From: an uncultured Bdellovibrionales bacterium | GTDB taxonomy: Bacteria; Bdellovibrionota_C; UBA2361; SZUA-149; DAOLCO01 | Reading direction: 5' to 3' | DNA: 64,000 bases | Assembly: GCA_964612555.1 (NCBI GenBank) | Contig: CAZTBW010000004.1 | Location: 123,713-187,712, forward strand | Shown: in pieces, positions 25,671-27,707 of the stretch | Numbering within the stretch: position 1 is the stretch's first letter | Layout: every line of letters begins with the position of its first letter | Notes under the pieces: model-generated | The model's database searches: none | Seen by the model: only the letters and a program-made list of their open reading frames with translations | What the model was told of the DNA's origin: nothing | Program-made: the position numbers and the translations under genes

Positions 25671-27707
25671 CTATATATCTTTTAATAGTGTGAGTACTAG
25701 CTGTGGTTGTATGTTCGCCTGCGAAAGTACGGCAGCACCTGCTTGTTGAAGAATCTGGCTTGCTGCAAGTTTTGCAGACTCTTCTGCAACATCGGTGTCA
25801 GTGATTTGAGATGCTGCGCTTGCGTAGTTTTGGGTCATCGTGGAGAGGTTTGAAATGGCGGTGTCGATTCGTGAAGTAGAAGCACCGATTCCGGCACGGG
25901 CTAGGTTTAAGGTTTCTAGGCGTTGTTTTGAAAGCGAAAGGGTTACACGTGCGCTAGCCTGATTTGAGACTACCATACCAGCAAGTTCGTCTACTCCGGT
26001 TTTTAACATGCTTCGAGAATAGACTTGAGTATATTCATTACCATCAAAGTCTAAACTAAAAAACACCTTCTGACCATCAGCGCTAATAAAGGGACCATAG
26101 GCAAAGCCATCATCTAACATACTATTTATATTTTCATTATAAATATCAATGGAAGCAACTTCTACTTCCCCAGTCTGCATATCTTTTCTATATACTTGCA
26201 AACCACCAACTCCATTAATTATATTTGAAGAAAATGAATAAAATGACACATAACGACCATCTGCGCTTAAATTTGCATTGTGACTATAATTATTTCCTTG
26301 CACTCCATCTGCGGTGCTGCTAGCAAGTCTTAGCTCTCCTGTAACTAAATCTTTAACATAAATCTGATTTCCACTTACTCCAGAAATGAGGTTTGTGGAA
26401 TTTGACTGAAACGCAAGAGAACGACCATCTGCACTTAGTTTTGCATTATAACTACTAGCATTTCCTTGCACTCCATCTGCGGTGCTACTACCTAGTTTTA
26501 GCTCGCCTGTAACTAGATCTTTGATATAAATTTGCCACCCACTTACTCCAGAAATGAGGTTTGTAGAATTTGACCGAAATGCAAAATAACGACCATCCGC
26601 GCTGAAATGAGCTCCAGTACTACTGCCATTTCCCTGTATTCCATTTACTGCGCTACTACCTAACTTCAGCTCACCTGTAACTAAATCTTTGATGTAAACC
26701 TGCCATCCACCCACCCCGGAAATGAGATTAGTGGAATTTGAATGAAACGCAAGGTAACGCCCATCTGCACTTAAACTAGCCCAATCACTTGAGCCATTAC
26801 CATGTGTCCCATAGAGATCGCCACTTCCCAACCTTAGCTCTCCTGTAACTAGATCTTTGATATAAATCTGAACTCCACTCACCCCAGGAATAAGGTTTGT
26901 GGAATCCGACCTGAATGCAAGATAACGACCGTCCGCACTCAGGCTGGCATAATTAGAAATAGAATTTGCCTGCACTCCATCCGCAGTGCTACTCCCCAAT
27001 CTCAATTCACCTGTTACCGTATCCTTGATGTAAATCTGATCTCCACTCACTCCGGAAATCAAATTTGTAGAATCTGAATGAAATGCAATATAACGACCAT
27101 CCGCACTCACCGATTGAATTATACTCATTGAGTTCCCCATTGCGCCACTGCCATTTACACTTAATAACGTCGTCTCCCCCGCAGACAGTGTCCCAAAAGC
27201 ATCAGTAGTAAGCGCATTTCCCACTTGCACTGCCAACCCCCCAGCCACCCCATAACCACCCTGCAAATTCACTAGCGTATTAACGCCCGTCAACAACTGC
27301 ATGTCATTAAACTTAGTACTACGAATAATCCGATTATACTCATTCTGCAAAGCAGTCACCTCATCCTGAAGCGGCTTTCTCTGAGCACTATTCAAAGTCC
27401 CATTAGCACTCTGCTCCGCTATCTCCTGAATACGGAACATAATATTTGTAAGCTCTGTAATCGCACCTTCTGCAATATTCAGATAACTGATACCATCATT
27501 CAAGTTACGAATACCCTGAGCCAGTACTGCTCGATCTGCATTAAGAAGCGAAGAAACAGAAAGCCCCGCCGCATCATCCGATGCACGATTAATCCTCATC
27601 CCACTTGATAATCTGCTAAAAGAAGTTTCAAGGTCTTTGCTAGCCCGAGTAAAATTTCTCTGAGCGTTCATAGATGCGATGTTGGTAGTGAGGGATAATC
27701 TACTCAT
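25671..27707 (-). CDS. flagellin with internal TolB/PD40-like beta-propeller repeat domain
   Basis: N-terminal D0/D1 (LTTNIASMNAQRNF...LSSGMRINRASDDAAGLSVS..NDGISYLNIAEGA) and C-terminal D1/D0 (ASQILQQAGAAVLSQANIQPQLVLTLL) flagellin domains; central ~360 aa = 6-7 tandem 46-aa repeats LSADGRYLAF.S.STNLISGVSG.QIYIKDLVTGEL.LGS. Confidence 0.8.
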   Translation of the reverse strand: MSRLSLTTNIASMNAQRNFTRASKDLETSFSRLSSGMRINRASDDAAGLSVSSLLNADRAVLAQGIRNLNDGISYLNIAEGAITELTNIMFRIQEIAEQSANGTLNSAQRKPLQDEVTALQNEYNRIIRSTKFNDMQLLTGVNTLVNLQGGYGVAGGLAVQVGNALTTDAFGTLSAGETTLLSVNGSGAMGNSMSIIQSVSADGRYIAFHSDSTNLISGVSGDQIYIKDTVTGELRLGSSTADGVQANSISNYASLSADGRYLAFRSDSTNLIPGVSGVQIYIKDLVTGELRLGSGDLYGTHGNGSSDWASLSADGRYLAFHSNSTNLISGVGGWQVYIKDLVTGELKLGSSAVNGIQGNGSSTGAHFSADGRYFAFRSNSTNLISGVSGWQIYIKDLVTGELKLGSSTADGVQGNASSYNAKLSADGRSLAFQSNSTNLISGVSGNQIYVKDLVTGELRLASSTADGVQGNNYSHNANLSADGRYVSFYSFSSNIINGVGGLQVYRKDMQTGEVEVASIDIYNENINSMLDDGFAYGPFISADGQKVFFSLDFDGNEYTQVYSRSMLKTGVDELAGMVVSNQASARVTLSLSKQRLETLNLARAGIGASTSRIDTAISNLSTMTQNYASAASQITDTDVAEESAKLAASQILQQAGAAVLSQANIQPQLVLTLLKDI
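26070..27140 (-). repeat. intragenic tandem coding repeats (~138 bp x 6-7) encoding PD40-like blades
   Basis: Nucleotide-level periodicity (recurring CCATCTGCRCTxA..., GGTTTGTGGAATTTGA...) mirroring protein repeats. Confidence 0.7.

Follow-up and report, generated by a model that had tools for sequence, protein, structure and literature searches.

We examined a 64,000-nucleotide stretch of contig CAZTBW010000004.1 (hereafter ‘the window’) from an uncultured Bdellovibrionales bacterium (assembly GCA_964612555.1) and found that it carries a gene for what is probably a filament-type flagellin with a conserved D0/D1 core, whose outer domain, placed at the usual site, is a closed seven-bladed PD40-type beta-propeller of ~42 kDa. 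We assign this reading a probability of roughly 0.7. A preliminary description, made from the letters of the sequence, had proposed a flagellin with a propeller in its variable region, and the minus-strand open reading frame (ORF) that it delimited proved to be exact and single (Table 1). The product (678 amino acids (aa), 71.4 kDa) contains no cysteine, and its N-terminus, MSRLSLTTNIAS, lines up with those of its homologues.

Both ends of the protein are those of a flagellin. The Pfam family PF00669 (Flagellin_N) matched aa 7–144 (E 2.5e-33, 115.5 bits against a cut-off of 26.6, covering profile positions 2–139 of 139) and PF00700 (Flagellin_C) matched aa 595–675 (E 8.4e-18, 64.9 bits against a cut-off of 23); all three of the families first predicted for this protein (these two and PD40) were recovered above their gathering scores. 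The flagellin models of NCBIfam matched the two protein ends only (best E 2.8e-58). A structural model built with AlphaFold2 on an alignment of 63 family sequences (A1) contains helices at aa 10–34, 42–101, 107–130 and 583–677 and a D1 beta-hairpin at aa 145–161, and in this model the outer domain is placed after the hairpin of an otherwise recognizable D0/D1 fold. When the model was compared against the PDB with Foldseek, the flagellar filament structures 9n59, 7sn4 and 1ucu were among the matches, with a probability of 1.00.

The region between these ends measures ~397 residues (aa 176–572), somewhat more than the ~360 originally estimated, and is built from repeats. The motif SADGR occurs seven times, at aa 201, 257, 313, 369, 425, 481 and 542 (spacings of 56, 56, 56, 56, 56 and 61 residues), and Tandem Repeats Finder reported 5.1 copies of a 168-bp period over positions 26250..27107, with 74% matches. 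The actual unit is 56 residues, or 168 bp, and the 46-residue (138-bp) string that had been taken for it is its conserved core; of the ‘six or seven’ blades initially allowed, the count of seven stands and that of six does not. The units are also less alike than the ‘near-identical’ of the preliminary description. Units 1–5 share 66–79% identity in protein and 66–81% in DNA, unit 6 is 41–49% identical to them in gapped alignment (45–52% ungapped), and unit 7 is degenerate (12–28%). The longest exact DNA match between any pair of units is 26 nt. PD40 (PF07676) matched six stretches of the region (E 1.2e-18, 66.9 bits against a cut-off of 20.9). At the very start of the insert, aa 176–195 form a partial repeat: every blade has the segment TGELxLGSS...GN, and 8 of these 20 residues agree with it, where controls averaged 1.6 and reached 6 at most.

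The AlphaFold2 model has a mean predicted local distance difference test score (pLDDT) of 87 and a predicted template modelling score of 0.80, with pLDDT above 90 over most of the repeat region. In it the insert is predicted to comprise 28 strands arranged as seven four-stranded sets that form a closed, seven-bladed ring. The Foldseek comparison of the model also matched TolB and S9-peptidase propellers. The structures most like the insert are propellers, for the most part with seven blades, together with TolB; the list of structural matches gives 30.6 for CylK (7ron), 25.3 for an S9 carboxypeptidase (8wt1), 23.7 for oligogalacturonate lyase (3c5m), 21–23 for RbBP5, WDR5 and G-beta, and 20.6 for the six-bladed TolB (1c5k). 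By confidence, strand count and structural matches, the predicted structure bears out the proposal that the insert is a PD40-type propeller. Only three clear strands are modelled in unit 7, and a further strand appears at aa 179–181, within the partial repeat; blade 7 would be closed by this strand from the N-terminal end of the insert, in a so-called ‘velcro’ closure. Such a closure would place the start and the end of the insert next to each other, an arrangement that would let the propeller nest in the D1 loop. Ring closure and domain orientation are read from the strand pattern and the fold matches.

A single-sequence search of the insert against the sequences of the PDB gave no matches, and the WD40 repeat (PF00400) was absent among Pfam matches at E up to 1. 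The propeller domain of WDR3 appeared below threshold (E 0.0068, 16.6 bits against 154), and the resemblance to WD40 proteins is one of fold level only. TolB was rejected as the identity of the protein, both on score (TIGR02800, 36.3 bits against a cut-off of 343, E 3.1e-9) and on its N-terminus, which is a flagellin D0 and not a start of the signal peptide type. An enzymatic insert was likewise ruled out: no peptidase or other enzyme family scored above threshold among the Pfam matches (the DPPIV_N propeller reached 13 bits against 22), and every conserved position is structural.

The two parts of the protein evolve at different rates. Among the closest homologues the D0/D1 regions are 86–93% identical and the insert is 48–69% identical. 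Within the blades the A–B turn (SADGR) hardly changes; variation is greatest in strand A and the D–A loop, and next in the B–C loop; all strongly conserved positions of the insert lie within the structural repeat consensus. Given that no conservation extends beyond this consensus, and that no enzyme family was matched, we read the propeller as a non-catalytic scaffold. By the convention used for propellers, the D–A loops, the B–C loops and the start of strand A make up the ‘top’ face around the central channel, which is the usual ligand site. With the face set by this convention and by the strand order, the fastest-changing positions would fall on the usual ligand-binding face.

The window protein belongs to a family of like proteins. 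Flagellin termini were present in 68 of the best 120 database clusters (a lower bound on the size of the family), most of which also contain PD40 and are ~660–720 aa long. The 63 aligned members are 661–717 aa in length and 36–75% identical to the window protein, and every member examined has its first SADG at ~aa 201 and a repeat period of 56–58 aa. The family is found in metagenome genomes of Oligoflexia/Bdellovibrionota: sources that bear a name are, for P0021, an Oligoflexia bacterium and, for locus L001, a Bdellovibrionales metagenome genome, the one locus that a scan of genome contigs returned, at 50% identity. Exact-sequence matches in the databases were absent for the window protein and for its closest homologues P0002 and P0004. 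A search with the junction between D1 and the propeller (aa 120–260) against 1.84 billion representatives placed two flagellin-type matches in its top 150, the remainder being dominated by multi-propeller PD40 proteins because the scores of their repeats add up; a tblastn search of phage genomes recovered ordinary flagellin ends only. More than one copy is present on several contigs, and at locus L002 two propeller flagellin genes lie in tandem. Both in the window and at the homologous loci the gene stands alone amid unrelated housekeeping genes, without a conserved neighbour.

The closest relatives of the insert outside flagellins are multi-propeller PD40 proteins (35–51% identical), including one from Bdellovibrio sp. 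HCB-110. Among the top matches the number of matched repeats in these relatives is most often 14, which suggests strings of seven-blade propellers. Judged by such comparisons, the insert fits an origin as one seven-blade module captured from a resident large secreted PD40 protein. Giant proteins with the same PD40 repeat subtype (P0241, P0242 and others) were also observed, for example one of 7417 aa with 78 matched repeats and one of 6770 aa with 53.

In a filament, the D0/D1 helices of this protein would build the core. Because the protein contains no cysteine and its export and assembly termini are intact, we infer that it would pass unfolded through the flagellar channel, with which the pI of the insert (4.8) and its lack of cysteine are compatible. 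The propeller would then fold at the growing filament tip, and one propeller per subunit would coat the filament. Our guess is that this produces a rigid, exposed and fast-evolving coat that thickens or stiffens the filament and offers a variable surface for adhesion or for evasion of phages or antibodies. The published filament lattice has 11 protofilaments with a repeat of ~52 Å along each, and we estimate that a disc ~50 Å wide fits at a radius of ~90 Å or more, in a filament of roughly the thickness of that of Salmonella. Filaments with large outer domains do exist, according to cryo-electron microscopy structures among the Foldseek matches and to PMC11532411.

Several points weigh against this picture. 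The export, polymerisation and function assigned to the protein are read from its sequence, and it is topology rules, applied to a predicted model, that say how the propeller is oriented on the filament and which of its faces is which. The best NCBIfam flagellin model, NF009444, reached 197.7 bits against a curated whole-protein cut-off of 332, and each of ~20 NCBIfam flagellin models scored under its own cut-off, probably because of the 397-aa foreign insert. The genes fliD, fliS, flgK and flgL were not found near the gene, either in the window or at the homologous loci; the sigma-28 consensus is no commoner in the window than expected by chance, and none lies upstream of the gene. The secretion genes of the window resemble a non-flagellar type III system at least as much as a flagellar one. 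Finally, some flagella of the Bdellovibrio type are membrane-sheathed, and if that were so here, the propeller would be unexposed.

A convincing sigma-28 site was observed for one homologue only, at locus L003, where a good match of this type, TAAAG-N-GCCGACAA (4/4 and 7/8 positions), lies ~218 nt upstream of the flagellin P0017 (gene at 5191). The same flagellin adjoins a large glycosyltransferase and a methyltransferase, which might modify it.

The protein might instead be a subsidiary or specialised flagellin that joins ordinary short flagellins, encoded at other sites of the genome, in small amounts or within a single segment of the filament; this would leave scattered propellers and not a continuous coat. 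Filaments made of several flagellins are common (discussion of PMC11532411; Caulobacter and Shewanella literature), carrier contigs hold at least two paralogues, and the gene sits by itself, apart from flagellar operons. However, the paralogues on the same contig are propeller flagellins themselves, and the 64-kb window, which covers just a small fraction of a genome, showed no short flagellin. We regard such a role as possible but unlikely.

If a continuous coat of propellers is assumed, a bolder and decidedly doubtful extension would be that in this Bdellovibrionota-type lineage, many relatives of which are predatory, thousands of rigid propellers cover the filament with their fast-evolving ligand face outward, the flagellum acting as a multivalent organelle of recognition or adhesion (for instance, for the capture of prey or particles), or alternatively that the propellers interlock as a protein sheath. 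Were it true, a recognition organelle or propeller sheath would be a function of flagellin outer domains not yet described.

It seems improbable that the protein is secreted without polymerising, with ends that serve only as an export signal for a flagellar or other type III secretion system and a propeller that works as a binding protein, either soluble or attached to a surface. Genes resembling those of type III secretion do lie 14–18 kb away, encoding SctV/FlhA-like, SctQ/FliN-like and short SctJ-like proteins and a FliA-like sigma factor, and secreted flagellin homologues that form no filament are known, such as FlaC of Campylobacter. Against it, D0 and D1 are retained at full length, D1 hairpin included, and are 86–93% identical in close homologues, far beyond the need of an export signal, and the helical parts match filament-forming flagellins end to end in the Foldseek comparison.

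The preliminary description had further suggested recent expansion of the array and possible phase or size variation by recombination. That the array is recently expanded, and that a surface antigen varies in size or phase as recombination alters its repeat number, we now consider very improbable. Blades 6 and 7 match the same-numbered blades of homologues, and blades 1–5 carry no such positional signal, being as similar to one another as to any blade of the closest homologue, its same-numbered blade included, or more so. In a codon test, identical residues were encoded by the same codon at 45–60% of positions between blades, against 37% expected from the codon usage of the gene; the exception was the pair of blades 4 and 5, at 75%. 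These above-chance values, together with exact matches of up to 26 nt, indicate that some gene conversion occurs. Synonymous codons have nevertheless mostly diverged, and from the codon test and the blade orthology matrices we conclude that the repeats are old. The DNA identity between units is just 66–81%, seven units and a length of 661–717 aa are constant over all 63 homologues, down to 36% identity, and a ring with one blade more or fewer could no longer close as the model predicts. Old repeats in combination with a fixed blade number and length rule out a recent expansion and make size or phase variation very unlikely. We infer that structural constraint keeps the blades alike, together with gene conversion that is local and occasional and is clearest between blades 4 and 5; the repeats appear to carry a trace of homogenisation plus one more recent local conversion.

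That the protein is a hook-filament junction protein of the FlgL type is scarcely credible and was ruled out on model scores: the FlgL model TIGR02550 does match it (E 5.7e-21) and several source databases, with Joint Genome Institute names among them, call homologues ‘flagellin-like hook-associated protein FlgL’, but that model reaches 75 bits against a cut-off of 127 where flagellin models reach up to 198 bits (E ~1e-58 against ~6e-21 for FlgL), the termini pass the Pfam flagellin thresholds, and the name looks, in our reading, like a generic label spanning flagellins and FlgL and not a specific call.

Table 1. Features of the propeller flagellin gene and its surroundings (positions in the 64,000-nt window)
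Feature	Positions	Strand	Basis or remarks
Complete flagellin gene, including stop codon	25671..27707	minus	Single ORF, 678 aa
N-terminal D0/D1 segment, aa 1–175	27183..27707	minus	PF00669, AlphaFold2 secondary structure, Foldseek
Predicted seven-bladed PD40-type beta-propeller insert, aa 176–572	25992..27182	minus	397 aa, 41.7 kDa, pI 4.8
Partial repeat, aa 176–195 (AGETTLLSVNGSGAMGNSMS)	27123..27182	minus	Putative strand D (outer) of blade 7, ‘velcro’ closure
Repeat unit 1, aa 191–246	26970..27137	minus	Motif positions, identity matrix
Repeat unit 2, aa 247–302	26802..26969	minus	Motif positions, identity matrix
Repeat unit 3, aa 303–358	26634..26801	minus	Motif positions, identity matrix
Repeat unit 4, aa 359–414	26466..26633	minus	Most like unit 5: 79% protein, 81% DNA
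Repeat unit 5, aa 415–470	26298..26465	minus	Identity matrix, codon test
Repeat unit 6, aa 471–531	26115..26297	minus	61 aa, divergent; position-for-position match to unit 6 of homologues
Repeat unit 7, aa 532–587	25947..26114	minus	Degenerate, strands A–C only, then back into D1
C-terminal D1/D0 segment, aa 573–678	25674..25991	minus	PF00700, model; single long helix 583–677
Near-perfect inverted repeat, 5' leader of flagellin gene	27753..27841	minus	33-nt arms, 94% complementary, 23 nt between
FlgO-domain protein	3133-3936	plus	PF17680, E 1.2e-35
Type III secretion-like gene set	9019-13549	minus	
RNase P RNA, class A	14526-14871	minus	245 bits
tRNA gene	21833-21905	plus	
Inverted repeat	23903-24073		59-nt arms, 80% complementary, 53 nt between
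Second inverted repeat, 25-nt	24164-24227		
Schlafen AlbA_2 and HATPase_c_4 gene	24225-25580		Convergent with flagellin gene
Wzt-type ABC transporter ATPase	28110-29456	minus	C-terminal carbohydrate-binding domain PF14524
tRNA gene	29509-29581	minus	
Large FG-GAP repeat protein	42174-44540	plus	Another propeller-type repeat

The leader of the flagellin gene contains a hairpin, 46–134 nt upstream of the start codon, that is unique in the window. The 201-nt leader RNA folds with a minimum free energy of -89.6 kcal/mol (z = -8.0), and no comparable hairpin was seen upstream of the homologues at L002 and L003/L004. It could stabilise or regulate the mRNA, or could be a small inserted palindromic element. 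The gene immediately upstream, in the same orientation as the flagellin gene, encodes a Wzt-type ATP-binding cassette (ABC) transporter ATPase, and no partner permease was seen adjoining it. On the other side, the longer of two further inverted repeats lies just upstream of the Schlafen gene.

The type III secretion-like set comprises a 650-aa FHIPEP protein, two ORFs of 94 aa, a 173-aa SctQ/FliN-like protein, a 262-aa SctJ-like lipoprotein whose length is insufficient for FliF, and a 225-aa FliA/WhiG-like sigma factor. For the FHIPEP protein the score was slightly better with SctV (496 bits) than with FlhA (465 bits), both under their cut-offs; its relatives are labelled both ways, and those that are named come only from Oligoflexia/Bdellovibrionota, which places the window in an uncultured member of that group. 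Possibly the set represents a type III system of this phylum that is non-flagellar or highly divergent. In Vibrio and Campylobacter, FlgO is a component of the flagellum associated with the outer membrane, and the FlgO-domain protein of the window hints that the organism is flagellated, perhaps with extra basal-body rings or a sheath. Large FG-GAP repeat proteins occur in the window and also at locus L005 (636-3582 and 16680-19442), where they flank a propeller-flagellin homologue; the association could be fortuitous, or could reflect an abundance of secreted propeller proteins in such genomes. The RNase P RNA and tRNA genes are ordinary housekeeping RNAs, and the window looks chromosomal.

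It is through the outer domains of flagellins that flagella take on roles other than swimming, among them adhesion, enzymatic activity, stiffness and the evasion of immunity. A closed propeller of 42 kDa would be among the largest and most rigid single domains predicted at this site, and its folding would have to take place extracellularly, at the tip of the filament. The family is now concrete (at least 68 sequence clusters, with seven blades, a putative velcro closure and a variable ligand face) and could serve as a natural scaffold for the display of binding domains at high copy number on a filament.

The preliminary description regarded such a propeller as an unusual display or binding domain; the propeller insert itself stands, but its novelty is reduced by a published survey, in which Fields et al. 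(Nat Commun 2024, PMC11532411) clustered 16,948 AlphaFold flagellin outer domains and noted ‘WD40-repeats in cluster #55’, whose cellular homologues point to co-option. The present insert resembles that cluster as a flagellin outer domain predicted to be a propeller, with non-flagellin cellular homologues and known by prediction only, and differs in that cluster #55 is named WD40 whereas the insert is PD40 (PF07676) by sequence, the comparison being one of descriptions. For cluster #55, PMC11532411 does not state how many blades there are, how the ring closes, which taxa are involved or how the repeats evolved. Our literature search found no other paper in which a propeller, PD40 or TolB-like domain is tied to flagellin, nor any experimental work. 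The idea of a propeller on a flagellin has thus already been flagged, and the present case is a well-defined member that opens no long-standing question.

The flagellins of Salmonella (FliC), E. coli (H7), Pseudomonas and Campylobacter share with the window protein the D0/D1 core, the insertion site after the D1 hairpin and a faster-evolving outer region. Their canonical D2/D3 outer domains are mostly immunoglobulin-like or small beta folds, as summarised in PMC11532411, whereas here the outer region is predicted to be one closed 397-aa propeller of strongly conserved length. Enzymatic flagellins (flagellinolysin, Flagellin_HEXXH; Eckhard et al. 2017, cited in PMC11532411) likewise carry a large borrowed globular domain once per subunit. 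Unlike Flagellin_HEXXH, the present insert matches no enzyme family above the Pfam threshold, and its conserved residues all occupy structural positions of the repeat. Filament assembly is compatible with very large outer regions: Thomson et al. in 2018 reportedly described giant flagellins and thick filaments in marine gamma-proteobacteria. These belong to other taxa and are not known to have been described as propellers. In repeat family and fold the closest counterparts of the insert are TolB, the propellers of S9 peptidases and acylaminoacyl-peptidases, and the multi-propeller PD40 proteins. TolB has six blades and an N-terminal domain of its own; the propeller described here would, in contrast, be nested inside a flagellin.

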